DNA from: an uncultured delta proteobacterium
GTDB lineage: Bacteria; Myxococcota_A; Polyangia; Polyangiales; B10-G4
Direction: 5' to 3'
Assembly (NCBI GenBank): GCA_963727445.1
Contig: CAVSGI010000009.1
Coordinates: forward strand, 352,001-416,000
Length of the DNA: 64,000 nucleotides
Shown: in pieces, positions 23,642 to 40,222 of the stretch
Layout of the letters: the number at the start of each line of letters is the position of its first letter
Position numbering within the stretch: position 1 is the stretch's first letter
Position numbers and translations under genes: made by a program
The notes under the pieces: model-generated
Told to the model about the DNA's origin: nothing
The model's input: only the letters and a program-made list of their open reading frames with translations
The model's database searches: none

Positions 23642-23647
23642 CGGGGC

Positions 23648-24930: not shown

Positions 24931-24943
24931 GTGGCGGCTCCGA

Positions 24944-24968: not shown

Positions 24969-25010
24969 GGCCCGTGCGCCTCGCAAGCGGAATTCGTCCG
25001 AGTCGAAGTC

Positions 25011-25241: not shown

Positions 25242-25287
25242 CCCCGAAGAATCCGCAAAGGTCGCTGACGAGTCAATGCGGACGCCG

Positions 25288-25644
25288 TCACCGCTCGACG
25301 AGAACGAGCTCGAACTCGCCTGCAAGCACGAGGCTCTCTCCGGTTTCGAAGCGGAGCTCGCCCCCTCGCGGGATCTCGACGAGCTCGCCGTTCCGGCGCC
25401 GCACCGCCGTGCCGTTCGTGCTCTCGAGGCATCGCGCGAGCGCGGCGCCGTCCTCCCCCGGAATCGGGACGACTTTCAGATGGTGACGCGCGACGGTACC
25501 GGAGCTGATCTGAACGTCGGCTTCGCGCGAACGTCCGAGCAACAGACCCGCTGCGCCCAGCACCGCCTCGAGGGTGGCGGGAGAGCAGGCGGATGCCTTC
25601 GTCTTCATCCGTAGGGCGAGCGGCACGAGGACGGATTGTAGCAT
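25288..25644 (-). CDS. Stand-alone FHA domain protein
   Basis: LGRSREAD, VARHHL, STNGT. Confidence 0.75.
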   Translation of the reverse strand: MLQSVLVPLALRMKTKASACSPATLEAVLGAAGLLLGRSREADVQISSGTVARHHLKVVPIPGEDGAALARCLESTNGTAVRRRNGELVEIPRGGELRFETGESLVLAGEFELVLVER

Positions 25645-25714
25645 CGCGGCCCTCGTCCTCGCGCCAGCCACGATCGCCGATCGCCTCGAAGTCTGCGATG
25701 CTCCCAGCACCCCT

Positions 25715-26509: not shown

Positions 26510-27040
26510 ATGGGACGGAGAGGACGAGAGCTCCTGACGCAGCGGTGGGCGACTCACCGAAACTGGTCCAAGCAAGCGGCCATGCTGAGGTCTCACGACC
26601 GACTCGAGCATGCGTCGGCTCGCGTCGTGGAGATGACGCGCGAGACCGACGAGCCTGGGCGCGCAGCCCGTGCGTTCCGGCATCTGCTTCCTTCGGTCGA
26701 CAGCCACCTTCAATACCAGGAGCAGAAGCTCCTGCCGTTTCTCGAGTGGCGATGGGGCACTTCGACCGCCGCGCTCCTCGCGGACCAGAGGGCGCTCGTC
26801 GCGCAGCGAAGCGAGGTCATCGCCGCCCTGGAGGCCGCGGCGGCCGACGCAAAGCTCAGAGGCGTCGCGCTGGAGCGACTCGAAGCGCATCACGCGCTCC
26901 TCGTCCGCACCCTCGCGGCGACCGAGACGCTCGCCATTCCGCTCCTCGTCCAGCTGAGCCCATCGGAGCTCTCCAGCTTCACCCTCATGCGCGTGGGAGG
27001 GCTCCGTGAGCTCATCGCCACGCACGCTGCCGCCGAGTAG
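26510..27040 (+). CDS. Hemerythrin-like helical protein with degenerate metal ligands
   Basis: SHDRL, HLQYQEQKLLP pattern resembling HxxxEExxLxP; start uncertain. Confidence 0.55.
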   Translation: MGRRGRELLTQRWATHRNWSKQAAMLRSHDRLEHASARVVEMTRETDEPGRAARAFRHLLPSVDSHLQYQEQKLLPFLEWRWGTSTAALLADQRALVAQRSEVIAALEAAAADAKLRGVALERLEAHHALLVRTLAATETLAIPLLVQLSPSELSSFTLMRVGGLRELIATHAAAE

Positions 27041-27084
27041 CGGTCTGCGGAAGGCCATGGAGCGCTATCCTTCTACGAGCTCCC

Positions 27085-27729
27085 ATGGCCGAGCAGCAGA
27101 ACAAACGAGTTCGCGTCATCTCCGGTGCACACGGGGTCACCCTGCGTGCGACGCTCGGACTCCTCGACGCCATCGGGACGACCTTCGAGTCCCTTGGCTG
27201 GACCCTCGGGGCGGTGAGGGCGCGGCGGCGCCTCTCCCGGCTTCTCGACGAGGCCGGGCATCCCGTCCCCATCGCCGGGGCGTCGGAGGGTGTGATCCGC
27301 ATCGAAGGCCGCGTCGAGCTCCTCGATTCGGTCGACGATGAGCATGGGGATGCGGTCGCGGCGTTTCTGGTGCGCGAGACCAGAGACGAGGCGTGCGGTT
27401 GCCAGAGCAACTGCACCGCGATCAAGCGTTGGGTCACGACGCGCGGCAACGCCGGACGATTCATGGTGCGGGACGCGGGCGGCGTCGCCTTGGTGATCGG
27501 CCCGCGCCTTCGGCTCCTGGACTTTCGCGGCCAGCCGGTCGATCCCTTCGAGGCCGGCGCGCTCCGGGTGCGCGACGGAGATCTGGTGACCGTCCTCGGC
27601 TCGGCGGCGAACGAGGTCGTGGAGGAGTCGCGCGCGCGCCCGGCAGACGGGTATCGCGGAACGCGGACGACCCCAGTGTTTCGCGCGGTCCCAGAGATTC
27701 CGGTCCACGTCTTCTGCGCCCGATCCTAG
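27085..27729 (+). CDS. Hypothetical protein
   Basis: Clean ORF with plausible composition; GDLVTVLG...GYRG C-terminal segment. Confidence 0.6.
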   Translation: MAEQQNKRVRVISGAHGVTLRATLGLLDAIGTTFESLGWTLGAVRARRRLSRLLDEAGHPVPIAGASEGVIRIEGRVELLDSVDDEHGDAVAAFLVRETRDEACGCQSNCTAIKRWVTTRGNAGRFMVRDAGGVALVIGPRLRLLDFRGQPVDPFEAGALRVRDGDLVTVLGSAANEVVEESRARPADGYRGTRTTPVFRAVPEIPVHVFCARS

Positions 27730-27755
27730 CGAGGCACCTCAGCGGCTGAACGCCG

Positions 27756-28748
27756 TCACCACAGCGCGTGGTGGTCTTCGACGACGCCGAAGAGGCCGCT
27801 CACATCGTGGCCGAGGACGTTGCCTTCGAAGCGACCGTAGGGCTGGACGAAGTCGGTGCGCAGTGGCCCCACGCCCATGTGCTCCTCGCGCGCGCCCTCT
27901 GGATGGATCTCGAGGTCGACCTCGTCGCCTTCGAGGGAGCGGACGCGCCACGGCTCGTCCTTCGGCCGTGGGGGCACGTCGAAGCGCACACCGCCGAGGG
28001 GCACGACGCGGCCGTCGATCCACGCGGCGTTCTCGCGTGAATGTCCGCGTTCGTCGTCGTAAACCTGCGCGGAGAGGTTGAGCCCGAAGGCACGCCCATC
28101 CGCGAGGCGTCCACTCGTGCAGCACCAGTTCCACACCGTCTCGCGGCGGGCCTGCGAGCGAGTCCAATCGCTCGCAGCGAGCGCGCCCTCCAAAGAGATC
28201 GGCACGTCGCCGAGCCGGAGTGCACCCGAGGCTGGCCATCCCGCGGCCTTGTGGGTGTAGGCGACGTGCGTGGCGTCGAGGCGGTGCAGCATGGCGAGAG
28301 ACTCCTGCGCCTCGATGTGCGCTTCGCCGGTGAGTCGCAGCGCGCCGACGGGCAGATCCAGCGCCACGTCCCATCCATCGCGGGCGGTGATCGACACCGC
28401 CGCCTCCCGCGTCTTCCACGCGGTCGTGCCCCGGACCGAGCTCTCGGCGATGCTCGGCTGCCGGCCGAGCGGCGAGATCACACCGTACTCATGTGTGGGT
28501 GCGTCGCCCGCGCGGTCGACGGCGTAGGCGAAGACGCTCCCCACGTAGCCGAGCTGCACCAGGCCGAGGGCGACAAAGAAGCGATCGTTGGTGAAGGAGA
28601 GGTAGTGCCACTCCTTGAGCCGGTAACGCGACAGACCTCGTCCACCGAGATCGATCTCGGCGAAGGGCGTTCGGTAGATCCCGAGCTGCGCGTCGTCGCC
28701 GGGTGCGTAGACGTCGGGCGCTTCGGGCAGTGAAGGCAGCTCGCTCAC
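27756..28748 (-). CDS. DUF2804-family protein
   Basis: KEWHY, YTHKAAG, DWTR, WNW, FGLNL, ENAAWIDG, FVQPYGRFEG, GVVEDHHALW. Confidence 0.8.
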   Translation of the reverse strand: MSELPSLPEAPDVYAPGDDAQLGIYRTPFAEIDLGGRGLSRYRLKEWHYLSFTNDRFFVALGLVQLGYVGSVFAYAVDRAGDAPTHEYGVISPLGRQPSIAESSVRGTTAWKTREAAVSITARDGWDVALDLPVGALRLTGEAHIEAQESLAMLHRLDATHVAYTHKAAGWPASGALRLGDVPISLEGALAASDWTRSQARRETVWNWCCTSGRLADGRAFGLNLSAQVYDDERGHSRENAAWIDGRVVPLGGVRFDVPPRPKDEPWRVRSLEGDEVDLEIHPEGAREEHMGVGPLRTDFVQPYGRFEGNVLGHDVSGLFGVVEDHHALW

Positions 28749-28764
28749 GGATGCGGGCAGGCGT

Positions 28765-29397
28765 TCAGGCGAGGACGCCGCGGAGGTTGTAGTCGAGCAC
28801 CGCGCGGCCGATGCGCTCGGGATCGGCCTCTCCGTCCTGCATCAAGCGCTCCTCGAGCAGATACTTGATGGAGCCGAGGATGCAGCTCGCGACGATGTCC
28901 ACGTCGACGTCGCGCACGAGGCCCAGCCGCTGCCCGTTCTCGAGGGAGTAGCGGATGAAGTCGTGAAGGCTCCCGTAGAAGCTGCTGAGCTTCTTGTCGA
29001 CCTCGGCGTCGAGGCCGACCGCCTCGCGCAGCAGGATGCGCGTGAGCGCCTTGTGTTCGGTGACCGAACGGACGATGCGCGAGACCGTTTCGACCAGCTG
29101 ATCCTGAATGGGAGGGGCGCCATCCGTGGTGTCGACGCCGACCACCGTCTTGCGCAGCTCGGCGAGGAGCTCCTCGGTGAGCTCGACGAAGATCGCCTGC
29201 TTGGACTCGAAGTAGAGGTAGAAAGTGCCGCGCGCGATGCCCGCCGCGTCGATGATGTCGCTGATGCGCGTGCCGTGATAGCCCTTGGCGGCGAAGACGG
29301 TCTCCGCCGTTCGCAGGATCTCTGCGCGCCGCGTCTCACGCTGCGCTTCGGCGCGAAGGCTTCGGCCGTCGACGCGTTCGGTGCTGGTCTCGCTCAC
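28765..29397 (-). CDS. TetR/AcrR-family regulator
   Basis: FAAKGYHGTRISDIIDAAGIARGTFYLYFESK; GTG start overlapping the acyltransferase stop. Confidence 0.92.
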   Translation of the reverse strand: MSETSTERVDGRSLRAEAQRETRRAEILRTAETVFAAKGYHGTRISDIIDAAGIARGTFYLYFESKQAIFVELTEELLAELRKTVVGVDTTDGAPPIQDQLVETVSRIVRSVTEHKALTRILLREAVGLDAEVDKKLSSFYGSLHDFIRYSLENGQRLGLVRDVDVDIVASCILGSIKYLLEERLMQDGEADPERIGRAVLDYNLRGVLA

Positions 29398-30200
29398 GCC
29401 CCCCTCCACGCGCGGCGCCCGTTCTCGGCTGCCTGTTGGGTCTCGTATTCTTCGAAGTAGGCGTCGACACGACGCGCGATGGGCTCGCGCACCTTCGCCG
29501 CGAGCTCCTCGACGGTTTCCGGTCCGGTGCTCGAAATAGGCTGCTCGCAATAGACGGTCACCGTGTTGCCGGGTCGGATGATCCAGGAATCGGCGCGCAT
29601 CACGTGTTGCATTCCGGTGACGGCGACCGGGACGATCGGGATGTCGAGCTCGCGCGCGATGTGGAAGACCCCGCGCTTGAAAGGACGCACGCGTCCGTCG
29701 CGAGTGCGGTGTCCTTCGGGGAAGGCGAGGATCGAATGGCCGGCATCGATCTCGCGCTTGAAGTCCTCCATGAGGCGTCGCGTCTGGCTCGCGCCCCGGT
29801 GGACCGCGATGGTGCCGCGCTGCCTCATGAACCAGCCGTAGACCGGGTATTCGAAGTGCTTCGCGAGCTCGAGGCCCTGTTTGAAGTGGGGCGTTGCGTC
29901 GTACATCGTGCAGTGGTCGAAGTGGTTCACGTGGTTGCACGCGAACACGTACTGCCGATTCGGGTCCACGTCGGGGTGGACGACGGCGCGCCACTTCGAG
30001 CCGGTGAGGGCGACCTGGCCGCGGACGTAGAGCCGGTTGAGCCACTCGATCTGGTCGGAGCGCAGGAAGGTCTGCAGGGCCATCATCGACCCCATGCAGG
30101 GCACGATCGACGAGACGCCTGCGGCCCACAGGCCGGCGGAGACGACCTTGTCGCCGAGGGTCGCGGGGGGCGCTGCGTTCTTCTTCTTTCGCTCGCTCAT
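29394..30200 (-). CDS. Lysophospholipid acyltransferase (PlsC family)
   Basis: NHVNHFD (HxxxxD), FPEGHRT, PFKRG, PIVPVAV. Confidence 0.92.
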   Translation of the reverse strand: MSERKKKNAAPPATLGDKVVSAGLWAAGVSSIVPCMGSMMALQTFLRSDQIEWLNRLYVRGQVALTGSKWRAVVHPDVDPNRQYVFACNHVNHFDHCTMYDATPHFKQGLELAKHFEYPVYGWFMRQRGTIAVHRGASQTRRLMEDFKREIDAGHSILAFPEGHRTRDGRVRPFKRGVFHIARELDIPIVPVAVTGMQHVMRADSWIIRPGNTVTVYCEQPISSTGPETVEELAAKVREPIARRVDAYFEEYETQQAAENGRRAWRGA

Positions 30201-31105
30201 GCGATCACCTTCAGGGCGCCCGGCACCACCTCGAGGGCTTCGAGCTTCAAAGGAATCACTTCTCCATCCACCATGCATTCCAGCTCGCCCACGTTCTCGA
30301 GCTCGACGCGCCTCGCGCGGGTCTGCTCCACGTCGGGGGCGGTCACGTGCTTGCCGTCGAAGATCTCGGGGAAGGTCTTGAGCAGCTTCACCCGGCCGAT
30401 GTCGCCCACGCGAATGACGTCGAGCTCGCCGTCGCTCGGGTCCGCCGACGGCGCCATCATCATGGTGCCGCCAGTGAACTTGCTGTTCGAGAACGACAGC
30501 AGCACCGCCGGACGCTCGTCCAACTCCCCTCCGTCGAGACGCATGGGAAAGACGGGATGCTTGAGCTTCGCCGTGCAGACCACGGTGGCCAGGACGTAGC
30601 CTGCCGTGCCCAACCCCTTGAAGCGGCGGTTGGTGAGCCCGCCTGCGTCGGCGGTGAAACCGATGGAGAGCAGGTTGATGTAGTGGAGGATGCCGTCCGC
30701 GTGCTCGGCGCGGATCACGTCGCACTCCCGCTCGCGCCCGCGCGCCAGCGCCTCGATGGCGAGGTCGGTGGTGTCGATGTCGAAGTCCCGCAGGAAGGAG
30801 TTGCCGGTGCCGAGGGGCAAGAGGCCCAGCACCGGCGCGCCCGCGCCGTTCGCCTTCTTCGGGTCTGCGGCGAAGATTCCGTCGACCACTTCGAAGCTGG
30901 TGCCGTCGCCGCCTACCGACAGAAAGTGCGTGACGCCGCGCTCGCGCGCGTCCTTGGCGAGCTCGCGCGCGTGTCCCGGCCCGCGTGTCCTGTGCACCTC
31001 CATCTTCAGGCCGCCCCGCTCGAGGCGCGCTCGCGCATCACCGAACCTCTTTCGGGCGCGGCCTCCGCCGGCGGCGGGGTTGAAGATGGTGAAGAAGGTC
31101 GTCAT
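30197..31105 (-). CDS. Diacylglycerol/sphingosine kinase-family lipid kinase
   Basis: NPAAG, VGGDGT, LPLGTGN, VDGE. Confidence 0.92.
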   Translation of the reverse strand: MTTFFTIFNPAAGGGRARKRFGDARARLERGGLKMEVHRTRGPGHARELAKDARERGVTHFLSVGGDGTSFEVVDGIFAADPKKANGAGAPVLGLLPLGTGNSFLRDFDIDTTDLAIEALARGRERECDVIRAEHADGILHYINLLSIGFTADAGGLTNRRFKGLGTAGYVLATVVCTAKLKHPVFPMRLDGGELDERPAVLLSFSNSKFTGGTMMMAPSADPSDGELDVIRVGDIGRVKLLKTFPEIFDGKHVTAPDVEQTRARRVELENVGELECMVDGEVIPLKLEALEVVPGALKVIA

Positions 31106-31108
31106 CGC

Positions 31109-32833
31109 TCAGCTCAGCGGCCTCACCACGCTCTTGTCGAGGCTCGTGCGCAGGGCGTCGGCGAGGACGCCGCGCTTGAGCTTCATCGAGGCCGTGCGGG
31201 GGAACTCGTCCTCCCAGCGAACCAGACCCGCCACGCGCTTGAAGTCGGGGAGACGGTGATTGCGGGCGCTGAGCTCCTGGCGGAGCGCGTCCTCGTCCTC
31301 GTCCTCGCCGCGGTAGACCGCGACCAGCACCTCTTCTTCGAGCTTGCCGCCGGGCCAGATGTAGTTGGTGGCGAAGACGGCGAGCTCATCGCAGGGCAGG
31401 CCTTCGAGCTTCTGCTCGATGTCCTCGGGGTAGATGTTCTTGCCGCCGGCGGTGACGATCATGTTCTTCGATCGCCCGACGAGGTGCAGATGACCACTGG
31501 CGTCGAGCCAGCCGAGGTCACCGGTGTGGAGCCAGCCGTCGCGGATGGTCTCCGCGGTCTGCTCGTCGTCGTCGAGGTAGCCCTTCATGATGGTGCGCCC
31601 GCGGATGAGCACCTGCCCGACGCCCTCGTCGTTCTCGCCCTCGATGCGTATCTCGACGCCGTCCACCGCGCGGCCGACGGAGTCGCCCCGGAAGGGCATC
31701 AGATCGTTGACGGTGGCGACGGTGCAGGCTTCGGTGAGGCCGTAACCGATCACCACCGGGATGCCGAGGCGATAGAAGAATTCCGCCCGCGCCTTGTCGG
31801 TGAAGGCGCCGCCGCAGAAGAGCATCTTCAGCGAGCCGCCGAAGGCCTCGTGCACCGGCTTCAGCAGCCGGCTCGAGAGTGCGTGGTTGGGGGCGCGGTC
31901 GGTGAGGATCTGGTTGAAGGAGGACAGGACCTCGAAGAGACCGCGCTTGGTGGGCGTCGCTTCGTCGAGCTTGTCCTGGATGCGCCGCTCGAAGGCTTCG
32001 AGGATCAGCGGGACCACCGCCATGTGGGTGATCTCGTACTCCTTCATCGTCCAGTTGATGAACTCGGGGCGGAGCGAGCGCTGATGAATGATCGCCGCGC
32101 CGCCGCAGAGCGGACCGACGAAGCCCACCATGAAGTCGATGGCGTGATTCGTCGGCAGGATCGAGAAGTAGCGATCGCCGATGCCCATCGGGAAGAGCGA
32201 TCCGAGCGAGCGGTACTGCTCCAGGTAGTTGTCGTGGGTGAGCATGCACCCCTTCGGCCGCCCGCCGGTCCCCGAGGAGTAGACGATGGTCGCGACGTCG
32301 TCGCGGGTCCGCGGCACGAAGCCCGGGCTGTGCCCGTTCTCCGCCGCCGGCAGCTCTTCGTAGCGAACCGCGCCTTCTGGCAGCGTCTCCTTCTCCGGAG
32401 CCTCGCTCACGACGACCAGGGGGACGGACGCCACGTCGTCCCCGAAGCGCCGCCATAGGGGGTACTCGACGAAGAGGGCCTTGGGCTTGGCGTGGGCGAG
32501 GAGGGCGGCCTGGTCGTCGGTCTCGAGCTTGTAGTCGAGAGGGACGAGGATCGCGCCTCGGTACATGGCGGCGTAGGCGCTGATGAGCCAGCGGGGCTGG
32601 TTGCTCATCAGGATGGCGACGCGGTCGCCGGCGCCGATGCCCGCATCCTCGAGGAGGCGCGCGACCTTCATCGCTTCGCGCCGGAAGTCGTTGTACGTGT
32701 ACGCCGACTTCTCCTTCTTGCGGCTCGCCTCGACGAGCGCGATCTCGCTCTTGTAGGTGAGGAGCGCGTCGGTGAGGAGCTCGCCCAGCGAGTCGTAGCG
32801 CTCGGGCGCGATCATCGTGTGCGTCTCGCTCAC
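31109..32833 (-). CDS. Long-chain fatty acyl-CoA/ACP ligase (AMP-binding)
   Basis: YSSGTGGRPKG, GYGLTE, WLHTGDLG, GRSKNMIV, GKNIYPEDIE, TASMKLKR. Confidence 0.93.
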   Translation of the reverse strand: MSETHTMIAPERYDSLGELLTDALLTYKSEIALVEASRKKEKSAYTYNDFRREAMKVARLLEDAGIGAGDRVAILMSNQPRWLISAYAAMYRGAILVPLDYKLETDDQAALLAHAKPKALFVEYPLWRRFGDDVASVPLVVVSEAPEKETLPEGAVRYEELPAAENGHSPGFVPRTRDDVATIVYSSGTGGRPKGCMLTHDNYLEQYRSLGSLFPMGIGDRYFSILPTNHAIDFMVGFVGPLCGGAAIIHQRSLRPEFINWTMKEYEITHMAVVPLILEAFERRIQDKLDEATPTKRGLFEVLSSFNQILTDRAPNHALSSRLLKPVHEAFGGSLKMLFCGGAFTDKARAEFFYRLGIPVVIGYGLTEACTVATVNDLMPFRGDSVGRAVDGVEIRIEGENDEGVGQVLIRGRTIMKGYLDDDEQTAETIRDGWLHTGDLGWLDASGHLHLVGRSKNMIVTAGGKNIYPEDIEQKLEGLPCDELAVFATNYIWPGGKLEEEVLVAVYRGEDEDEDALRQELSARNHRLPDFKRVAGLVRWEDEFPRTASMKLKRGVLADALRTSLDKSVVRPLS

Positions 32834-33063
32834 AGCCGCCTCCCGATGATCTCGGCCAGGCCGCCGAAGGTGTTGACGCCCTGGACCTCGTAATCCGGAA
32901 TCTCGACGTCGAACTCCTCTTCGAGCTCGGTGAGCATGTCCATCGCCTGGTAGCTGTCGATCCCCAGCTTCTCGAAGAAGTCGTCCCCGGCAACCAGGGT
33001 CGACGCGTCCTTGTCGAAGCGCTTGGCTGCGAGCGCGATGAGCTTTTTCTCGATGTCGGTCAT
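32830..33063 (-). CDS. Acyl carrier protein
   Basis: 77 aa acidic protein; LGIDSY phosphopantetheine Ser; LEEEFDVEIPD. Confidence 0.92.
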   Translation of the reverse strand: MTDIEKKLIALAAKRFDKDASTLVAGDDFFEKLGIDSYQAMDMLTELEEEFDVEIPDYEVQGVNTFGGLAEIIGRRL

Positions 33064-34028
33064 GGCAGGTACGGCCTCACGTCGTCGGACTCGACGAACT
33101 TCTTCAGCGCCGCCTCGACCACCGGCGAGGCGAAGAGATGAGTGAAGAGGCGCTTCTCGCGGTCCAGGTCGCGGCGCGGCAGCGGCTTGATGAAGGGCTT
33201 GGCGAGGGCGCTGGTGTCGCGGTCGAAGCGCGCCGCCTGCTTGGCGACCTCGATGGCGACGTTCAACGCTTCGCCCCGCGCCACCACCTGAGAGACGAGG
33301 CCCACCTCGTGGGCCCGCGTCGCGCGCAGGCTCCGCCCGGTCAGCAGGAGGTCGCGCACCACGGCGTTGCCGAGATCGCGATTGAGGCGCGGCACTCCGC
33401 CGAAGCCGGGCACCAGACCCAGGCGCAGCTCCGGGAAGCAGAAGCGCGCGCTCTTGTCGGCGATGATCACGTCAGAGGTCAGCGCCAGCTCGAAGCCGCC
33501 GCCGAAGACGAAGCCGTGCACGGCGGCGATGGTGGTGATGGGCACCGTGTCGAAGACGTCGAAGACGCGGTGGATGCGATCGATGAAGCTCCGGAGCTCG
33601 TGCGCCTGGGCGAGGAGCGGCACGCCCGAGGCTTTGCGCTCCTGTATGCCTTCGTAGAGCTCGCGCAGGTCGGCCCCGGCGCTGAAGCCCTTCTCGCGCG
33701 CGCTGTAGAAGACGAGCGCCCGCGCGCCACCGGCCCCGCGCTCGAGGTAGCCGGCGAGCTTCTCGAGCTCGCCCAGCATGACGGTTCCGATCTCGTTGAT
33801 CGGCGCCCGGTCGAGGGTGACCTGGAGCGCTTCGCCGTCGTGCTCCCACCGGATCGCCTCGCCCGCGAAGGCCTCGGGCCGCGCGTTCTTCGCCATCTTG
33901 GAGAACGCCGCCGGGTCCGAGAAGGGCCGCTCCTCACCGCTCAGCACGCGCCCGACCACCGACCGCACGTGCTCCCCGTCGAGCACCGCGCGCGCGATCC
34001 GCGTCTTGAGCTGGTCCTTCTTGCTCAC
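33060..34028 (-). CDS. Enoyl-CoA hydratase/isomerase (crotonase) family protein
   Basis: FSAGADL, GGGFELAL, FPELRLGLVPGFGG; both catalytic Glu present. Confidence 0.92.
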   Translation of the reverse strand: MSKKDQLKTRIARAVLDGEHVRSVVGRVLSGEERPFSDPAAFSKMAKNARPEAFAGEAIRWEHDGEALQVTLDRAPINEIGTVMLGELEKLAGYLERGAGGARALVFYSAREKGFSAGADLRELYEGIQERKASGVPLLAQAHELRSFIDRIHRVFDVFDTVPITTIAAVHGFVFGGGFELALTSDVIIADKSARFCFPELRLGLVPGFGGVPRLNRDLGNAVVRDLLLTGRSLRATRAHEVGLVSQVVARGEALNVAIEVAKQAARFDRDTSALAKPFIKPLPRRDLDREKRLFTHLFASPVVEAALKKFVESDDVRPYLP

Positions 34029-35551
34029 GCGTAGAGCTCCTTCAGCTTCGCCACGTTCGGCGGAAGCGCCGGGAGGTGATCCCACGGGTCGCCCCCCGCG
34101 CCGATCCCCTCGCGGAACGGGAACTCTGGATGGTGCGTCTTGACGTGCTCGGCCAGGTCGATGCCCATCTGGCCCATGCGCTCGAGGTTCTTCACCACGC
34201 AGCGCCCGATGCCCTCGCGCATCGTCTCGCCGTCGCGGATCAGCTCGACCAGGACGTCGTAGGTCTTGTCGGCGAGATTCGGGTCGTCCACCTCGAGGGC
34301 GAGGTGCGGTGTCCCGCGGTCCACCATCAGATTGCGGATCCGCTCGTCCATGGTGATCCCCGCCGACGGAACGAGGCCGGGCATCGATGTCACGATGGCG
34401 TGATAGCGGCTCGAGACCATCGCGCTCGCCTGGCGGATCACGCTGACCATCTCGTACATCTCGTGCTCGTCCGAGACGAAGACCGGCATCCCGCCGAAGA
34501 TGTCAGCGAGCATCTCGCAGGCGCCCCGGTCGAGCTGCTCCATGCCCACCGCGATCGGGAAGCACTCGTGCTCGTCGGCGAAGCGGCGCGCCGCCTCGGC
34601 CATCGCCCGTACGTACGTCTTCTGCTTGTCGCGGATCTCGTCGCTCGACGCGTGGAAGTAGACCGACTTGTAGTGGCTCGGGTCGTCCGCTCCGGCGGCG
34701 ACCAGCGCCGCCTTCAACACGTCCGGCTTCACCGGCCACCAGAAGGCGTTGATCGGGCAGAGCGCGATGACCGGCTTCTCCCCGTCCCATCCCGCGTCGC
34801 GGAGGAGCTTCTGCCCCACGGCGTCGGGCGCAGGCGCGAAGGTCCATGCGGTATCGGTCCCGGCCCGCGACGCGACGCCGAGCCGCGACAGCACCTCGCG
34901 GCTCTCGGCGTTGCGCGCGATGATCAGCGCGTCCTGGCAGTACTTGCGGACCAGCTCCTCGAGGGACTCGTCCATCTTGCCCGCCTCGCCGCCGTACCCG
35001 ACGGCGATCTTGCCCTCGGCCGACGCCAGGCCCAGCGAACCCACCATCATCGTCGACAGTGCGTTGGCGAACTTGCTCTTGAACATCGAGCCTTCGCACG
35101 CGATCACGCCGTGCTGCTTGTGCACGGTGTCGAAGAGGAACTTCGGATAGAGCTGGGGAAGCGTCAGCTGCTTCACCGTGCGGAAGTAGCCGCGGCTCAG
35201 CTCGGGATCGATGGTCAGGATCGACAGCTCGACGTGGTCGTCGCCGAAGACGTGTCGGAACTGCCGGATCATCTCCTCCACGCGCACGTCGGCCCCGGTG
35301 TTGCGCGTCCCGGTGTAGCCAGCGAGCAGGAGCCGGAGCGGCCGCCCGGGCGTCCACACCGCGCCCGCATCGAGCGCGTAGCGACTCTTGGCGAGCTCGA
35401 TGAAGCCAGCCATCGTGCCCATCAGCACCTTGTCGGAGTCGACGCCGTCCTTGGTGGACTCGGCGACCTTCTTCACGAAGCGCCGGGCGCTGGCGAAGAG
35501 CCCGTCACCACCCCGCTTCGCGAGCAGCGCGCTGGTCGTCGGGGCGCTCAC
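34025..35551 (-). CDS. Polysaccharide pyruvyltransferase-family protein
   Basis: GYTGTRNTGAD, ARNAESRE, DTAW, VSSRYHA. Confidence 0.8.
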   Translation of the reverse strand: MSAPTTSALLAKRGGDGLFASARRFVKKVAESTKDGVDSDKVLMGTMAGFIELAKSRYALDAGAVWTPGRPLRLLLAGYTGTRNTGADVRVEEMIRQFRHVFGDDHVELSILTIDPELSRGYFRTVKQLTLPQLYPKFLFDTVHKQHGVIACEGSMFKSKFANALSTMMVGSLGLASAEGKIAVGYGGEAGKMDESLEELVRKYCQDALIIARNAESREVLSRLGVASRAGTDTAWTFAPAPDAVGQKLLRDAGWDGEKPVIALCPINAFWWPVKPDVLKAALVAAGADDPSHYKSVYFHASSDEIRDKQKTYVRAMAEAARRFADEHECFPIAVGMEQLDRGACEMLADIFGGMPVFVSDEHEMYEMVSVIRQASAMVSSRYHAIVTSMPGLVPSAGITMDERIRNLMVDRGTPHLALEVDDPNLADKTYDVLVELIRDGETMREGIGRCVVKNLERMGQMGIDLAEHVKTHHPEFPFREGIGAGGDPWDHLPALPPNVAKLKELYA

Positions 35552-36708
35552 GCCTGGATCTCCGTCGGGACGTGAACCCGGACCGGTCGGTCGGGGAAGG
35601 GCTTGTAGGGGTACTGGTAGTCGTGATCGCGCACCCAGTGGTAGAGCGGCACGCAGTAGTCGACGAAGGGCACCGGCGCCTCCCCGCGCAGCGCCTCGAC
35701 CGCGCGGCTGTTGTCGAAGACCGTGTCGTAGGTCATGTATGGCCAGAACACCTTGAGCACCGCCGCCAGGCCGGTGACCGCGTTGCGGGCCGGGAACTGG
35801 TCGACGAGGCCGACGAGCGTCGAAAAGCCCTGGTCGAGCGCTGGCACGAAGCGCGCGGGCCGCTGCCCGATCGCTCGCGCCACCACCTGCGTGATCTCGC
35901 GCGCGGTGTTCGACGCCTCGCCCGCGGAGAGGCTGTAGGCGTCGTACTTCGGCTCCGGCGTGAGGAACACCTTGGTGATCACCCGGGACACCCAGTCCAC
36001 GTTCGCGATGTCGATGCGCACGTTGCCGTCCATCGGAAGGATCGGCAGGCCGGCGAGGATGCCCAGCATCTTCGCCATGTCGAAGGCCGTGGTCCGGGGG
36101 TGCCGCGCGTCACCGAAGACGCTCACCGGCCGGTAGACGACCCGCGTCACGTCGGGCAGGAGCTCGTCCACCATGTGCTCGGCGAACTTCTTGGTGCGCG
36201 CGTAGGGGTCGTAGTCCGAACGATCCCACTCGACGGTCTCGTCCTCGGTCAGCACTTCGCCGTGGCGCTTACCCGCCACCGCGGCGGTCGAGATGTGATC
36301 GAAGCGACGAAGGCCGTGATGGTCGCGCGCGTCGCGCGCCATCTCGATGACGGCGAGGGTGCCACGGAGGTTGTGGTTGAAGCAGGCCTTGGCCGACTTG
36401 CGGTTGAGCGACGCCGCGATGTGCAGGAACGACGAAGACCCGCGGACCACGCGATCGTAGGTCTCGTCGTCGAAGCCGAGCCGCGGCTCGGTGAGGTCGC
36501 CGAGGGCGATGTCGATCCGATCGAGCGCGTCGAAGAACTCGGGGCCGTCCATGTGATTCTGGAAGGCGCGCCAGATCTTCTCTTCGGCGGCCTTTCGGCT
36601 GCCGCCGCGGACCAGGAGCGTCAAGCGTTCGTCACTTCGCCGCAGCAGGCGCGCCGCGACGTAGCTGCCGATGAATCCGGTACCACCGGTGACAAAGATG
36701 CTCATCAC
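35548..36708 (-). CDS. Extended SDR / thioester-reductase-like NAD(P)-dependent oxidoreductase
   Basis: TGGTGFIG, GDLTEPRLG, HISTA, YARTK. Confidence 0.88.
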   Translation of the reverse strand: MMSIFVTGGTGFIGSYVAARLLRRSDERLTLLVRGGSRKAAEEKIWRAFQNHMDGPEFFDALDRIDIALGDLTEPRLGFDDETYDRVVRGSSSFLHIAASLNRKSAKACFNHNLRGTLAVIEMARDARDHHGLRRFDHISTAAVAGKRHGEVLTEDETVEWDRSDYDPYARTKKFAEHMVDELLPDVTRVVYRPVSVFGDARHPRTTAFDMAKMLGILAGLPILPMDGNVRIDIANVDWVSRVITKVFLTPEPKYDAYSLSAGEASNTAREITQVVARAIGQRPARFVPALDQGFSTLVGLVDQFPARNAVTGLAAVLKVFWPYMTYDTVFDNSRAVEALRGEAPVPFVDYCVPLYHWVRDHDYQYPYKPFPDRPVRVHVPTEIQA

Positions 36709-38420
36709 GGTTCCTCTCGAAGAAGGGTCGGCTCGGCCGAGGTCGCGCCGGCACTCTGCTGGCGGCGAGCGGAGGCGCTCGAGCCCTTCACCCGCGCCTC
36801 GGGGGCGCCGGCCTCAGCCTGGGAGCGCGCTCTTTCAGGGCGCGGGAAGGGGGGATCCTCGTCGATGCGTTCGTTGCGGAGCAACGGCAGGCACCAGAGC
36901 TCGAGGCCGGGCACGTGGATCTCCATCCAGTAGCGCCGCCAGTCGATCTCTTCGGTGTCGTAGCCGAAGAGCGCGCCCTCTTCCTTCGAGAGCTTCGACG
37001 AGAGCGCTCGAACGTTCTTCGTCATGTAGACGTAGTCGTTGTCGTGGATGAAGGGCTTGTAGAGGCGGAGCATGTCCTCGATCAGCCCGATCTGCCGGTC
37101 GGCGTTCCGGAACTCCATCGACCAGCGCTTCATCTTCGAGTCGATGTCGTCGCCCAGGCGTTCGTGGAGCACGCGGGGCAGGGACTCCGTCGGGCGGAAG
37201 TCCTTGAGCCATTTCCGCCCCTTCTGAGCCGTCCGGCGGAGGAACGGCAGCGAGGGGAAGGGGTCTTCCTGTCCATCGCGCGGGACCGCGTCGAGGAAGC
37301 GGATGAGGAGCTTGTCCAGCGCCGCGGCGCCTTCCTTCTTGTGGATGCGCCGCGCAGCGAGCGCCGTCAGGTCGATCGCGCGATCGAAGAAGAGCGGATT
37401 CGTGTCGGAGGTGCCGAGGTGGTAGACGCGCTCGGCTTCGCCTCGGAGCTGCGCCGCGAGGATCAACATCACCGAGCGCGCGACGGTGTCTACGGGGATC
37501 ACGTCGAAGTGATTGTCGGGATTGCTCGGGAAGCTGCGGAACCAGCTCGAGAGGAGCCACACCAACGGCCCGCTGGTGTTGATGCCCTCGTTCCAGCCCG
37601 CGAAGGGATAGTTGCGGGCCGACTCCACCACCGACGGTCGCACCAGGGTGAGATCGATGTCGTCGCGCAGGGCGTGCAGGTGCTCCGACAGACCCTTGGT
37701 GAAGGTGTAGATGTTCGGCCACCCGAGGGACCAGGCCTTCTCGTTGGTGATGGAGACGCGCTCGCGGCGCGTCTCGACGTGGTCGAGCTTCTCGAAGAGC
37801 TCGCGCACCACCTCCGAGGGGTCGAAACGCGTGCCGTTCGGTGAGACGCCGGCCTCGATCTCCTCCGGGATCTCCCCGGAGACGTTGCCCGCGACGAAGG
37901 CGGTCGAGATGTGGAGGAAACGCGGCACGCGCAGGCGCGCCGCCACGTCGGCGGCGTTTTCACCGCCGAGGGTGTTGGTCTTCAGGCCCAGGATCGGATC
38001 GGGCTCGAAGTCGGTGAGCCCCGCGAAGTGGACGACGGCGTCCAGCGTCTCGGCGAGGCGCGAGACCGTGGCCTCGCCGAGGCCGCAGAGCGGCTTGCCC
38101 ACGTCCCCGTCGAGGACCTCCACCCGCTCTTCGACGAAGGCGTGAAAGCGCTCGCGGCCGAGCTTTTCGCGCAGCGGCCGGAGGGCCGGGCTCCGCTCGG
38201 CGAAACGCCAGAAGCGCTCCTCTGCGCTGCCCTTGCGGTTGCCACGCACGACGACGCTGACCCGCCGGATCTCCGGCACGTGGTCGAGGAGCATCGTCAG
38301 CCAGATCTTGCCGAGGAAGCCGGTGACGCCGGTGACCAGGACGTGCTTGCCGGCCAGGGTCTCGCGCACGCGAAGCTCTGCGCCGCGCCCGTTGCCGTTC
38401 TTCTTGCCGTTCGACGCCAC
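36705..38420 (-). CDS. Fatty acyl-CoA/ACP reductase (FAR, male-sterility domain type)
   Basis: TGVTGFLGK, HISTAFV, WPNIYTFTK, VRPSVVES, PFAGWNEG, DVIPVD; C-terminal IDWRRY. Confidence 0.9.
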   Translation of the reverse strand: MASNGKKNGNGRGAELRVRETLAGKHVLVTGVTGFLGKIWLTMLLDHVPEIRRVSVVVRGNRKGSAEERFWRFAERSPALRPLREKLGRERFHAFVEERVEVLDGDVGKPLCGLGEATVSRLAETLDAVVHFAGLTDFEPDPILGLKTNTLGGENAADVAARLRVPRFLHISTAFVAGNVSGEIPEEIEAGVSPNGTRFDPSEVVRELFEKLDHVETRRERVSITNEKAWSLGWPNIYTFTKGLSEHLHALRDDIDLTLVRPSVVESARNYPFAGWNEGINTSGPLVWLLSSWFRSFPSNPDNHFDVIPVDTVARSVMLILAAQLRGEAERVYHLGTSDTNPLFFDRAIDLTALAARRIHKKEGAAALDKLLIRFLDAVPRDGQEDPFPSLPFLRRTAQKGRKWLKDFRPTESLPRVLHERLGDDIDSKMKRWSMEFRNADRQIGLIEDMLRLYKPFIHDNDYVYMTKNVRALSSKLSKEEGALFGYDTEEIDWRRYWMEIHVPGLELWCLPLLRNERIDEDPPFPRPERARSQAEAGAPEARVKGSSASARRQQSAGATSAEPTLLREEP

Positions 38421-39083
38421 TCAGCCCTCCAGCACCGGCCAGTCGAGGTCACGCGCCATGGCGCGGAGCTGACGGTCGGGATGAATCGCGCAAGGCTTTC
38501 CGATGGACTCGAGGAGCAGCCCGTCGTCCGCGTCGGAGCCGTAAGCACAGGAGCGCGCGAGATCGATGTCGTGCTCGGCGGCGAAGCTCTTCGCCCAACG
38601 GCTCGCCAGGTTACCGTTGATGACGGGGTCGAGCAGGCGGCCGGTGCACTTCCCGTTCTGGATCTCCATTCGATTGCACACGTAGTCGGCCACCCCGAGA
38701 TGCTGCGCCAGTGGGCGGATCACCACCTCGAGGTTGTCGCTGATCAACACGACCTTCTCCCCGCGCTCACGCGCCTCGTCGAGGAGCTTCACGCCCACGG
38801 TGCGGAGCTTCGGCGCGATGTAGTCGTCGAAATACTCCTCGCCGAGAATGATCAGCCGGTCTTCGCTCATGCCGCAGAGGCCCATCCACGCCATGCGGCT
38901 GCCGACGGTCGCGTCGCGCAGTGGACTGCCGAAGAGGAAAGGGGCTGCGAGTGCCACGCTGGACAAGCGCGCGAAGCGCTCGCCCACGTGTTGCGCGTTG
39001 CCAGCGAACCACGCTGCCGCCGTCAGGGTCGGGCGTACGGAGAGACTTCCCTCCACCCGAAAAAACGCCGCTGTTCGACTCAC
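38421..39083 (-). CDS. HAD-IB-family hydrolase-like protein with degenerate motif I
   Basis: AAFFRVEGSL in place of DxDGTL; VLIS, IDLARSCAYG, LLESIGKP...PD. Confidence 0.8.
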   Translation of the reverse strand: MSRTAAFFRVEGSLSVRPTLTAAAWFAGNAQHVGERFARLSSVALAAPFLFGSPLRDATVGSRMAWMGLCGMSEDRLIILGEEYFDDYIAPKLRTVGVKLLDEARERGEKVVLISDNLEVVIRPLAQHLGVADYVCNRMEIQNGKCTGRLLDPVINGNLASRWAKSFAAEHDIDLARSCAYGSDADDGLLLESIGKPCAIHPDRQLRAMARDLDWPVLEG

Positions 39084-39165
39084 CTGGATCTCCCCGTGCG
39101 AGGGCGCCGCGGGTCCCGGAGCAAGGACCTGTCGGCGCGAGAGGGGGGTGGTGTAGCTCAGCTAG

Positions 39166-39179
39166 ACTGACGTGTCAGT
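39166..39179. promoter_or_regulatory. Palindromic operator candidate for the lipid operon
   Basis: ACTGAC-GT-GTCAGT about 80 bp upstream of the first gene; operon encodes a TetR. Confidence 0.55.
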
Positions 39180-39270
39180 GCTTCTTTGCCACTATTGTCG
39201 GAGCTGGCTCTGGTCGTGGCGTCGCCGGCGGCTCATCCCCTCGAAAGCACGGCACTAATCCCAGATGGCC

Positions 39271-39504
39271 CTGACGGAATTAAGTCCACCGGCATCCCGC
39301 TCTCGCGAAATGCCGGTGGTGACGCGTGAATCCACGAAGACCTCCCCCGAAGCCCGAGGAAAACGCGTCATGGTTGGCTCGTGTTTCAGGTCAGGTTGGC
39401 TCGTGTCTCTCCTTCGGTTGAAACCGTCGTGTTGGGAGTGAGCGGTTCCTTCGCAAGGCGCGTGCCTCCTTGTCGCCTCTGAGAATTGCTCGAATAACCG
39501 TCAG
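39271..39504. other. Structured non-coding element (candidate ncRNA/leader)
   Basis: Terminal IR CTGACGG/CCGTCAG; internal stems CCACCGGCAT/ATGCCGGTGG and TGACGCGT/ACGCGTCA; 13-bp direct repeat GGTTGGCTCGTGT x2. Confidence 0.4.
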
Positions 39505-39595
39505 CGCGAGCCCGTGATGGCGTCTTCAGTTGGCCACTCGGAGCGTTCCGCGTTCCACCAGCTGTTGCCACCGGTCCGCGGCGCGCTCCAAGCTC

Positions 39596-40222
39596 TCAGG
39601 TCGCGTGCCTTCGAGGGGCCAACAGACCGGTGCTGACGCCAACGACGGCGCCCATCAGGCCACCGGTGATGAGGAGCACACCCAGCGCACCGGGACCATA
39701 AGCCCCGGCAGGCATGGCGTTCGTTCCGAAGTAGGAGACCAACATCGCCAGCGCCCAGCCGATGACGTTGGCGGTGATCCACCGCCGCGCGACCTCGCTG
39801 TGACGGCGGAGCAGCAGCGCTTGGGCAGTTCCGAGGATCGCGCCGAGCCCGACCCCCGAGGCCAGGGCGTAGACGATCATGGTGCCGCTGTTCGGGCTGC
39901 TGAAGTCCTCGCTCCCGCCGGCGACCACCGAGCCCACCGCCCAGCCGGCCGCCATGCCGAGCCCAGTGACGGCGGTGAAGCCCCAGGCCGAGAGCTCGGG
40001 AAAGCGGCGCCGTAAGAGCGCGACCTGTGCACCGCCGACGCACGCACCCTCCACGAAGCCGGCGAAGACCATCAGTCCGCGGATCATCCAGGGCGAGGGC
40101 TCGCCCGCCGCCGGCGCGAAGATCGCGCCCACCAGGCCGGCGACCACCCCGCTGAAGGCGAGGCCCATCGCTTCGCCGACGGCGCAGGCGCCGATCCAGG
40201 AGATGAAGATGCGCGGGGGCAC
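39596..40222 (-). CDS. Gly-rich multi-pass membrane protein
   Basis: About six hydrophobic helices with repeated GxAQ...LRR motif; fused to the kinase N-terminus in the ORF track only because of a frameshift. Confidence 0.75.
   Translation of the reverse strand: MPPRIFISWIGACAVGEAMGLAFSGVVAGLVGAIFAPAAGEPSPWMIRGLMVFAGFVEGACVGGAQVALLRRRFPELSAWGFTAVTGLGMAAGWAVGSVVAGGSEDFSSPNSGTMIVYALASGVGLGAILGTAQALLLRRHSEVARRWITANVIGWALAMLVSYFGTNAMPAGAYGPGALGVLLITGGLMGAVVGVSTGLLAPRRHAT

Follow-up and report, generated by a model that had tools for sequence, protein, structure and literature searches.

Enzymes of the sugar-decorating PS_pyruv_trans family include CsaB of Paenibacillus alvei, WcaK of E. coli and Pvg1p of S. 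pombe, and in the accounts cited the characterised members all form ketals (PMC10435577, PMC6801904), the phosphoenolpyruvate (PEP) site of CsaB having been assigned by mutagenesis and docking to S88, R148, R306, H308 and K328 (PMC10435577). MurA and AroA (EPSP synthase), as described in the same source, move the enolpyruvyl group of PEP onto a hydroxyl with release of phosphate (PMC10435577). Ether lipids, for their part, have been ascribed to the elbA-E operon of Myxococcus xanthus, whose ElbD joins a fatty acyl reductase (FAR), a ligase, an ACP and an acyltransferase (PMC9131029, PMC13012113), to the AGPS route of eukaryotes and MXAN_1676, in which FAR supplies, as a fatty alcohol, the chain that a glycerolipid then carries in ether linkage (PMC9131029), and to the plasmalogen synthase PlsA/PlsR and the glycerol ester reductase Ger, which convert an existing ester. 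Steps of the Elb system are called uncharacterised in the review passages that deal with them. More broadly, the formation of the ether bond in alkyl lipids of aerobic bacteria, Acidobacteria included, is unsettled, and the operon described below, which recurs in several phyla, offers a concrete candidate for it. Acidobacteria are discussed as sources of the brGDGT markers used in palaeoclimate work.

The locus lies in a 64-kb window (the whole stretch of DNA that was analysed) and comprises ten coupled genes in the order pseudo-HAD, FAR, thioester reductase, PT, crotonase, ACP, acyl ligase, lipid kinase, PlsC and TetR (Table 1), the fourth, PT, being the pyruvyltransferase-family gene to which the original prediction had drawn attention. 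As that prediction held, PT overlaps both of its neighbours: its 508-residue frame opens with GTG and shares 4 nt (GTGA, 35548-35551) with the upstream reductase, and the overlap with the crotonase gene is likewise 4 nt if the crotonase GTG at 34028, preceded by AAGGAG, is used, whereas the longest crotonase frame (from 34085) would give an overlap of 61 nt. The ACP said to lie nearby was confirmed, and so was the lack of polysaccharide genes, a Pfam scan of the 46 high-GC3 ORFs of the window returning no glycosyltransferase, flippase or sugar-nucleotide enzyme. In a promoter and terminator scan of positions 27000-40000 the number of sites did not exceed that in shuffles.

Table 1. Genes and candidate operator of the PT operon
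Feature	Position	Strand	Basis
Candidate operator of TetR, a perfect palindrome (ACTGACGTGTCAGT) lying 82 nt before the first gene	39166..39179		sequence count
Pseudo-HAD, HAD-IB fold without catalytic aspartates, ElbB-like	38421..39083	-	PF12710 E 3.7e-18
FAR, fatty acyl reductase (NAD_binding_4 + Sterile)	36705..38420	-	PF07993 E 7.9e-42, PF03015 E 1.3e-7
SDR2/TR, second reductase, thioester-reductase type	35548..36708	-	PF07993 E 2.1e-37; TIGR01746 E 6e-30; GxxGxxG and YxxxK motifs
PT, divergent PS_pyruv_trans-family (CsaB/WcaK-like) GT-B enzyme	34025..35551	-	PF04230, model, hhalign
Crotonase-fold enoyl-thioester hydratase	33060..34028	-	PF00378 E 1.1e-36
Stand-alone ACP, 77 aa, LGIDS serine	32830..33063	-	PF00550 E 1.2e-11
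ACSL, acyl-CoA/ACP ligase	31109..32833	-	PF00501 E 5.7e-70
DAGK/YegS-type lipid kinase	30197..31105	-	PF00781 E 5.6e-26, PF19279 E 5.3e-32; GGDGT motif
PlsC-type lysophospholipid acyltransferase, ATG 30200 start	29394..30200	-	PF01553 E 5.1e-23; HX4D motif
TetR-family regulator, last coupled gene, GTG 29397 start	28765..29397	-	PF00440 E 5.9e-16, PF17932 E 3.8e-9

Membership of PT in the pyruvyltransferase family is upheld by Pfam, with PF04230 matched above its cut-off (E 1.6e-6; 28.7 bits vs 25.3) over residues 192-390, the match spanning profile positions 107-267 only; the NCBIfam CsaB model TIGR03609 scores 57.4 bits over residues 73-420, short of its equivalog cut-off of 213.1. The four motifs named in the original prediction (GYxGxxNxGxD, RxxxS, D(T)A and RYHA) were all located, at G78-Y-T-G-T-R-N-T-G-A-D88, R213-N-A-E-S217, G231-T-D-T-A-W236 and S381-R-Y-H384-A, and the majority of their residues are invariant across 31 homologues. 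Alignment to E. coli WcaK by hhalign (probability 94.9%, E 4e-8) places S155, R213..S217, D233-T-A-W, R382-x-H384 and R404 of PT against G-G-S, R-E-S-V-S, D-T-A-W, R-L-H and K of WcaK. With CsaB numbering mapped by motif, R213, R382, H384, R404 (in place of Lys) and S155 likewise match the CsaB PEP site, and the first four of these are invariant in the 31 homologues. The predicted structure (pLDDT 87, pTM 0.85) is of the two-Rossmann GT-B type, resembling PimA (Z 21.2), BshA (20.9) and Pvg1p (5ax7, Z 16.9), and its Foldseek matches are GT-B enzymes, so that the fold which the original prediction had set as a check was obtained in the model with the PEP-site residues retained. PT is thus akin to CsaB, WcaK and Pvg1p in PF04230, in fold and in the Arg, Arg-x-His, Lys(Arg) and Ser positions of the PEP site, and is set apart from these glycan enzymes by its CsaB score, its lipid operons, its fusions to FAR and ligases and its predicted lipid acceptor. 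MurA-type chains are absent among the structural matches listed for PT, the best of which are all GT-B; given that MurA and AroA differ from PT in fold and family and resemble it in the proposed chemistry only, they serve as a works-like comparison.

PT also carries N- and C-terminal helices specific to its family and an aromatic insert, CPINxFWWPVKP...HYxSVYFH. A search with PT at E<=0.001 matched 723 clusters out of 1.84 billion representative proteins, and neither the protein nor the 31-sequence profile found a meaningful match among PDB sequences. In cluster look-ups the close relatives bear MAG labels only, the named exceptions being Endozoicomonas atrinae (45% identity) and a FAR-PT fusion of Pseudobacteriovorax. 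A distant homologue at 29% identity (P0207) has glutamine synthetase, radical-SAM and sensor-kinase genes as neighbours, a context that is neither lipid nor EPS, and the link to lipids is therefore limited to the close PT clade.

Within that clade the genomic setting is strikingly stable. Eighty related PT loci were collected from Myxococcota, Acidobacteriota and Verrucomicrobiota, all of them MAG records, with PT identities of 50-90%, and the gene order of the operon recurs in most of them. The original prediction had been framed against homologues lying mainly in EPS/LPS loci, and the homologues of PT sit instead in fatty-acyl operons: at least one other operon gene is present at 72 of the 80 loci, and five stand-alone PT loci that were examined hold no polysaccharide genes. 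Where at least 4 kb of upstream sequence is available (n=64), HAD is found at 58 loci, FAR at 58 and SDR2 at 55; where at least 7.5 kb is available downstream (n=53), the counts are ECH 47, ACSL 44, ACSL2 36, DAGK 41 and PlsC 37, and a TetR gene is present in 20 of the 53 loci that reach far enough. The predicted co-occurrence with FAR and ACP is likewise seen, an ACP standing between crotonase and ligase at 52/80 loci and FAR lying on the same contig within ~6 kb of PT in 29 of 33 PT-positive relatives from an independent sample of the phylum. Clustering of the remaining unassigned ORFs of the 80 loci yielded no further neighbour family in more than 11 loci. Given this strong family conservation and recurring gene context, the observation is more than chance. 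Natural gene fusions carry the association further: two proteins join FAR to PT (P0273, 923 aa; P0274, 1014 aa), another joins PT to ACSL2 (P0185, in which the ligase portion is nearer to ACSL2, at 292 bits, than to ACSL, at 156) and a fourth joins ligase, ACP and PT (P0272). Taken together, the FAR-PT and PT-ligase fusions associate PT with the fatty alcohol on one side and with a carboxylate product on the other. Prediction of a complex between the C-terminal part of FAR and PT gave a score of 0.00 (mark 0.32).

The operon bears a clear likeness to elb, all of the HAD-like, FAR, ligase, ACP and PlsC-type acyltransferase functions being present. ElbB and the FAR, ligase and acyltransferase parts of ElbD each find their closest counterpart in one of four operon proteins, at 27-33% identity to the elb-type cluster of a relative; the pseudo-HAD is 33% identical to the ElbB-like protein, and the ElbD-like protein is matched by FAR in its N-terminal FAR region (33%) and by ACSL in its adenylation region (32%). 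The differences are equally plain. The functions of ElbD are separate proteins here, the HAD has lost its aspartates (motif I reads FFRVEGSL rather than DxDGT, here and in nearly all related loci, against FYDVDGTL in the ElbB-like protein), and the set is enlarged by PT, the crotonase, SDR2, the lipid kinase and, often, ACSL2, a second ligase. Across 301 genomes PT occurs in 34, fused ElbD in 96 and both in 2, a nearly exclusive distribution, and the source genome has no ElbD-like match at E<=1e-120 and a single FAR homologue, which is stand-alone, when searched with FAR. ElbC was considered as a possible PT homologue and rejected, as the gene that occupies the ElbC position, between HAD and ElbD, in the relative's elb-type cluster (L082) is a LarA-like Lar_N protein (BLASTP to PT E 0.72); no Lar_N gene occurs in the PT operon. 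The AGPS route shares with the operon the use of a FAR-made fatty alcohol but relies on a flavoenzyme with no AGPS-like counterpart here, and the backbone would derive from PEP rather than DHAP.

In light of these features, PT likely uses PEP on a lipid acceptor and not on a sugar, the predicted acceptor being the fatty alcohol made by FAR. Known members of its family, to our knowledge, form ketals on diols rather than enol ethers. We tentatively propose, with confidence somewhat short of even, a route to an ether-type lipid in which PEP and fatty alcohol would give an alkyl enolpyruvyl ether that is then activated, hydrated, reduced, phosphorylated and acylated. ACSL would load a fatty acid onto ACP (or CoA) for reduction to the alcohol by FAR, and PT would move the enolpyruvyl group from PEP to that alcohol, yielding the alkyl enolpyruvyl ether (2-alkoxyacrylate) and phosphate. 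The new carboxylate would be converted to a thioester by an acyl ligase, ACSL2 where present and ACSL in the source genome; the crotonase would add water to the 2-alkoxyacryloyl thioester; SDR2, of thioester-reductase type, would reduce the thioester to an alcohol and so give an O-alkylglycerol with a PEP-derived backbone; and the YegS-type kinase and PlsC would phosphorylate and acylate it. Several features of the operon are in keeping with this scheme. Two activate-and-reduce modules with one fatty-acid-like substrate need a second carboxylate, which a pyruvyl unit supplies. The crotonase motifs GGGFELAL and FPELRLG align with the catalytic Glu motifs of solved hydratases with both glutamates kept, and its best solved chain is a short-chain enoyl-CoA hydratase (5z7r, E 6.8e-28), which fits the proposed hydration. 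Likewise, the presence of a kinase and PlsC calls for a product with two free hydroxyls. No ACSL2 orthologue was found elsewhere in the source genome (85.6% complete; best match ~30% identity), where one ligase would consequently have to serve two substrates. The pseudo-HAD, its catalytic aspartates missing, is given no role in the scheme. On paper the ether would fall on the middle carbon, at variance with the sources cited, which describe 1-O-alkyl lipids in myxobacteria and as products of Ger (PMC9131029, PMC13159169).

Control of the operon may involve a short palindrome, ACTGACnnGTCAGT, which stands upstream of the operon, of detached PT genes in split clusters and of a PlsA/Ger-type gene. 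The 9.47-Mb source genome holds one perfect copy, before the operon, and the chance expectation is 0.09 per window. Among the 80 loci there are 37 copies, each directly upstream of an operon unit (31 before pseudo-HAD, 4 before a detached PT and 2 before a detached crotonase unit); the distance to the detached PT is 17-21 nt in four loci (L002, L021, L025 and L026), and the other detached units of the same genomes are also preceded by the palindrome. By simple count no common palindrome stands upstream of the acidobacterial operons. The TetR protein and the upstream palindrome would, judged from sequence, control the whole operon. The palindrome and its spread to detached PT genes and to the PlsA/Ger-type gene are new here, and the candidate operator offers a handle for defining the regulon and inducing the pathway.

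The broadest interpretation, which we regard as doubtful, is that the operon constitutes a previously undescribed, oxygen-independent route to glycerol ether lipids, in which the backbone would be built on a fatty alcohol from PEP (not from DHAP or G3P) to give 2-O-alkyl glycerophospholipids. On this view the operon would stand in for the ElbD system in its carrier lineages, and it would have one repressor and operator in common with a PlsA/Ger-type enzyme. Our literature searches turned up no publication in which ether or fatty-alcohol lipids are connected with a pyruvyl transferase or with an enolpyruvyl step, and none that deals with the ten-gene operon. If true, the proposal would bring lipid acceptors into the range of an enzyme family known for decorating sugars and add a third ether-lipid route beside AGPS and PlsA/Ger; the chemistry proposed for PT is open to a simple assay with PEP, fatty alcohol and phosphate release.

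Other explanations must be weighed against the enolpyruvyl-ether route. Given that every characterised member of the family forms ketals in the accounts cited (PMC10435577, PMC6801904) and that PT retains the PEP site, PT might itself be a ketal-forming pyruvyl transferase with a lipid diol as acceptor, either an alkanediol (1,3 or 1,2) or a glycerol that bears one alkyl or acyl chain and has its vicinal hydroxyls free. The anionic lipid so made would carry a pyruvate ketal, and activation and reduction of its carboxylate may follow. The PT-ligase fusion is compatible with any product bearing the pyruvyl carboxylate, and a 1,3-diol could come from an enoyl thioester by way of crotonase and FAR. 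We nevertheless consider this unlikely: an acyl-CoA dehydrogenase to supply the enoyl thioester is lacking from the conserved gene set of the 80 loci, a ketal followed by reduction would leave PlsC no free hydroxyl, and in the glycerol-diol version the crotonase would have no role. That PT should be a routine pyruvyl transferase of polysaccharides or the cell wall, the function that Pfam and the source annotations (polysaccharide pyruvyl transferase, WcaK-like) would give it, and only happen to adjoin lipid genes is scarcely credible when the window lacks sugar genes, synteny with lipid genes is kept across phyla, PT is fused to FAR and ligases, its detached copies have the same candidate operator as the lipid units, its score lies far under the CsaB equivalog cut-off and so few clusters match it.

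We judge it unlikely, to the same degree as the ketal reading, that any ether bond is made by another enzyme, either a co-regulated PlsA/Ger-type protein or a step shared with Elb, and that PT acts on a phosphorylated C3 compound in some other reaction, for instance to supply a head group or backbone or in an AGPS-like exchange. Elb clusters yield ether lipids without PT, according to the cited account (PMC9131029), and the operon's palindrome also precedes a gene for a protein of two BcrAD_BadFG domains plus DUF2229, the 'BBD' architecture, which is the portion that proven producers of alkyl ethers are described as having in common (PMC13159169). This likeness would link the operon to PlsA and Ger, which are themselves unrelated to PT and act on an existing ester, whereas a fatty alcohol would be used here. 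The palindrome stands before the BBD-type gene in 3 of 4 split-cluster genomes and, as a perfect copy, in 4/10 PT-positive and 6/8 PT-negative genomes sampled, being the sole copy in the genome in five of the latter. Against this, 15 of the 34 PT-positive genomes have no Ger-like match at E<=1e-60, and the Ger paper, in the part concerned, describes most ether-making Acidobacteria as without a Ger homologue (PMC13159169). Further, the BBD-type protein is likened to Ger/PlsA by Pfam architecture alone, its source annotation being only 'CoA activase', and the conserved 536-aa gene downstream of the Ger-like gene matches no Pfam family and has no HGD-D domain. Where a Ger-like enzyme is co-regulated, it could make any ether bond in place of PT. 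Finally, PT as a non-catalytic, scaffolding subunit of a FAR-centred complex would accord with the FAR-PT fusions and with the HAD-like neighbour, whose lost catalytic residues indicate that degenerate enzymes do occur in the operon, but is very improbable, since 31 sequences spanning several phyla agree without exception at the PEP-site residues and at ~80 further positions, a pattern typical of an active enzyme.

PT, a CsaB/WcaK-like protein of the PS_pyruv_trans family, very probably serves a lipid pathway rather than modifying a glycan. Its gene is one of ten minus-strand genes chained almost without gaps, the limits of which were set after start codons were re-examined; neighbouring genes overlap by 4 nt (ATGA/GTGA) at seven junctions, abut directly at one and are 3 nt apart at one. 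The operon comprises two "activate and reduce" modules, one of an acyl ligase (ACSL), an ACP and a fatty acyl reductase (FAR) and the other, in most loci, of a second ligase (ACSL2) and a second reductase. It also encodes a hydratase, a lipid kinase and a lysolipid acyltransferase, and lacks an acyl-CoA dehydrogenase to go with the hydratase. Solved structures nearest to the crotonase are short-chain enoyl-CoA hydratases. The HAD-like protein has FFRVEGSL in place of the DxDGT of HAD phosphatases, as do nearly all of 59 readable related HAD-like genes in carrying this substitution, and the ElbB-like protein of an elb (Myxococcus xanthus-type ether-lipid) cluster reads FYDVDGTL there. The genome has a single FAR. 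That no sugar genes lie near PT, as the original prediction had remarked, holds for the whole 64-kb window, where Pfam finds no glycosyltransferase, flippase, polymerase or sugar-nucleotide enzyme among 46 high-GC3 ORFs. A DUF2804 gene (27756-28748, minus strand) begins 16 nt after TetR and, because it was not seen beside the operon in related loci, is probably a neighbour and not an operon part.

Genes of the PT operon in order of transcription
Gene	Position	Strand	Remarks
pseudo-HAD	38421-39083	-	first gene
FAR	36705-38420	-	
thioester-reductase-type SDR	35548-36708	-	GxxGxxG and YxxxK present
PT	34025-35551	-	PS_pyruv_trans family; 508 residues
crotonase	33060-34028	-	both catalytic glutamates kept
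ACP	32830-33063	-	77 aa
acyl ligase (ACSL)	31109-32833	-	
YegS/DAGK-type lipid kinase	30197-31105	-	
PlsC	29394-30200	-	
TetR	28765-29397	-	

PT is a distant member of its family. Its Pfam PS_pyruv_trans match (28.7 bits, E 1.6e-6) barely exceeds the gathering score of 25.3 and covers the C-terminal half of the profile only, and the NCBIfam CsaB model matches residues 73-420 at 57.4 bits, far from the equivalog cut-off of 213.1. The motifs first read from the sequence are nonetheless all in place, namely G78-Y-x-G-x-R-N-x-G-x-D88, R213-N-x-x-S217, G231-T-D-T-A-W236 and S381-R-Y-H384-A, and their residues are mostly invariant across 31 aligned homologues that span several phyla. The AlphaFold2 model derived from this 31-sequence alignment (mean pLDDT 87, pTM 0.85) has a GT-B fold, and its Foldseek matches are GT-B enzymes only; VIA-align Z scores are 21.2 for PimA, 20.9 for BshA, about 20 for UDP-GlcNAc 2-epimerases and 16.9 for the yeast pyruvyltransferase Pvg1p. 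Sequence searches of the PDB, including one with a profile query, gave no match to PT. Profile comparison with E. coli WcaK (94.9% probability, E 4e-8, 346 columns) pairs the G-G-S, R-x-x-x-S, D-T-A-W and R-x-H motifs and a Lys/Arg some 20 residues further on. Given that these motifs match the positions of the CsaB PEP site, placed by mutagenesis and docking at S88, R148, R306, H308 and K328 (PMC10435577), the residues of the PEP donor site are retained in PT. Traits of the clade's own are an N-terminal helix pair, a long helical C-terminal extension and an aromatic insert, CPINxFWWPVKP...HYxSVYFH, of low confidence in the model. The clade is compact: of 1.84 billion representative proteins, 723 match at E<=0.001 and 202 at the stricter E<=1e-30. 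The window's own genome (85.6% complete) yields one PF04230 hit.

The lipid context is widely conserved. Scanning a single genome for each species turned up at least 582 relatives, and the best 80 loci, which were examined, come from MAG records only (Myxococcota; Terriglobia, Blastocatellia and Acidiferrales of the Acidobacteriota; Verrucomicrobiia; Kiritimatiellae). Among those of the 80 with at least 4 kb upstream of PT, the HAD-like gene and FAR are each present there in 58 of 64 and the second reductase in 55; among those with at least 7.5 kb downstream, crotonase follows in 47 of 53, ligase in 44, kinase in 41, PlsC in 37 and TetR in 20, and ACSL2 stands immediately behind PT in 36. ACP occurs in 52 of the 80 loci, and further gene families recur in 11 loci at most. 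PT stands alone in eight; five of these, when examined, had sigma factors, kinases, FG-GAP proteins and binding proteins around it and no glycan genes. In a sample of 301 genomes drawn evenly from the phylum, PT is present in 34, its own genome counted, and the proposed co-occurrence with FAR is seen in 29 of the 33 PT-positive relatives, on the same contig and within about 6 kb. A homologue at 29% identity has a neighbourhood unrelated to the lipid operon, which confines the lipid link to the close PT clade. PT is a known kind of enzyme in a lipid operon that is widely conserved and so far undescribed.

Naturally occurring fusion proteins link PT with the same partners. FAR is fused to PT in P0273 (923 aa; its cluster has three more proteins of 923 aa) and in P0274 (1014 aa, labelled Pseudobacteriovorax), PT to a ligase of ACSL2 type in P0185 (967 aa; 292 bits against 156 for ACSL), and ligase, ACP and PT to one another in P0272 (1348 aa). 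The last has a PilZ domain inside the adenylation domain of its ligase, which hints at c-di-GMP control. In P0216, a PT-like domain is joined to 4Fe-4S and GMC-oxidoreductase fragments.

A candidate operator connects PT with the lipid genes even where they lie apart. The perfect palindrome ACTGACGTGTCAGT (39166-39179), 82 nt upstream of the first operon gene, is the single perfect copy in the 9.47-Mb genome. Related loci hold 37 copies over 30 of the 80, all myxobacterial-type: 31 before the HAD-like gene, four before a detached PT (17-21 nt ahead, in L002, L021, L025 and L026) and two before a detached crotonase unit, with none away from operon units in these loci. Four whole genomes with split clusters have 3-5 copies each, against 0-1 for a control pattern, placed ahead of HAD-FAR-reductase, PT, and crotonase-ACP-ligase(-kinase-PlsC-TetR) units; detached PT therefore seems to stay in the regulon of the lipid units. 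Elsewhere in the genome, a third ACTGAC...GTCAGT-type palindrome, with a 5-nt spacer (C27:334656, outside the window), lies between divergent ORFs, the downstream one of which begins MGVSERRERE and looks like a regulator.

In three of the four split-cluster genomes an extra ACTGACGTGTCAGT precedes a protein of 1161-1176 aa with two BcrAD_BadFG domains and DUF2229 (BBD), named "CoA activase" in database sources. It resembles Ger/PlsA in domain layout; PMC13159169 describes this layout as the part of Ger/PlsA that every proven alkyl-ether maker keeps, and reports that Ger turns an sn-1 ester into a 1-alkyl ether. BBD proteins occur in 113 of the 301 genomes, 19 of which are among the 34 with PT. 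Among sampled genomes, a perfect ACTGACGTGTCAGT precedes the BBD gene in four of ten with PT and six of eight lacking it; in five of the latter it is the genome's only copy and heads a conserved two-gene unit, the gene downstream of BBD having no Pfam family. One PT-negative unit has a divergent TetR 37% identical to that of the window's operon. The own-genome BBD gene (C6:424328-427800, outside the window) is 63-74% identical to the operator-linked ones and has ACTGACGCTGACGTCAGT, a palindrome related to ACTGACGTGTCAGT with different spacing, 43 nt before its ATG; since the genome search met one TGA inside the match, it may be broken or mis-assembled.

In M. xanthus, elbA-E encode an NAD-epimerase, a HAD, an unknown protein, ElbD and another NAD-epimerase; ElbD, a multidomain FAR-ligase-ACP-acyltransferase, is required to make ether lipids of the alkyl and vinyl kinds, and reviews treat the step that forms the ether as unresolved (PMC9131029, PMC13012113). 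An elb-type cluster in a relative (L082) comprises a HAD, a Lar_N protein, a 1617-aa FAR-ligase-ACP-acyltransferase and then an epimerase, whose matching parts share 33% (HAD-like), 33% (FAR), 32% (ligase) and 27% (PlsC) identity with the window's proteins. ElbC was considered as the counterpart of PT and rejected, the protein at its position being LarA-like and unrelated to PT. That gene (L082:11150-12763, minus strand, genome G106) matches the lactate racemase N-terminal domain Lar_N at E 2.3e-34, so the Elb and PT versions both include, judged by domain matches, an enzyme of a type whose usual substrate is a three-carbon 2-oxo or 2-hydroxy acid. Of the 301 genomes, 96 have ElbD-like proteins, and only two (G072, G232) have these together with PT. 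This near-exclusion agrees with the two systems being alternatives for a single function, as a pattern rather than a test because the relatives are not independent.

The original prediction, that PT may move a PEP-derived C3 unit onto a fatty alcohol or lipid head group, holds as to the observation and is supported in part as to the interpretation, by the lipid-operon context, the fusions and the retained PEP-site residues; the literature searched yielded no pyruvyl or enolpyruvyl transfer linked to ether or fatty-alcohol lipids. The preferred, though tentative, scheme puts every operon enzyme to its usual chemistry. FAR would supply a fatty alcohol, to which PT would move the enolpyruvyl group of PEP; the resulting 2-alkoxyacrylate would be activated, a step that fits the adjacency and fusion of PT and ACSL2; the crotonase would add water to the 2-alkoxyacryloyl thioester, the thioester reductase would yield an O-alkylglycerol, and kinase and PlsC would produce an ether analogue of phosphatidic acid. 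Against this stand the ether on the middle carbon, as opposed to the 1-O-alkyl of known bacterial lipids, the own genome, in which no ACSL2 orthologue was found (85.6% complete), and the pseudo-HAD, for which the scheme has no role.

Ketals are the product of known family members, which likewise counts against the enolpyruvyl ether and would suit PT making a lipid-diol ketal, a less likely reading. Equally, an enzyme other than PT might form any ether bond, a candidate being the co-regulated BBD protein with its Ger/PlsA layout. It is very unlikely that PT is a conventional glycan enzyme, as its likeness to WcaK and CsaB would allow, set against a window and five examined solitary loci empty of glycan genes, or a scaffold, a reading that the fusions could accommodate and that the kept donor residues do not favour.

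Elsewhere in the window, three class-I methyltransferase genes and a zinc alcohol dehydrogenase (21558-22679) lie around a second TetR (23648-24295, within 22598-26452), and this stretch may hold a further small cluster for tailoring lipids or metabolites. The gene at 44198-46171 (minus strand) encodes a nidogen-like (NIDO) domain of animal type (E 1e-35) with MopE metal-binding motifs and adjoins LolA- and DsbA-like genes, and that at 6034-7038 (plus strand) belongs, in a bacterium, to the deoxyhypusine-synthase family (PF01916, E 2.4e-45).
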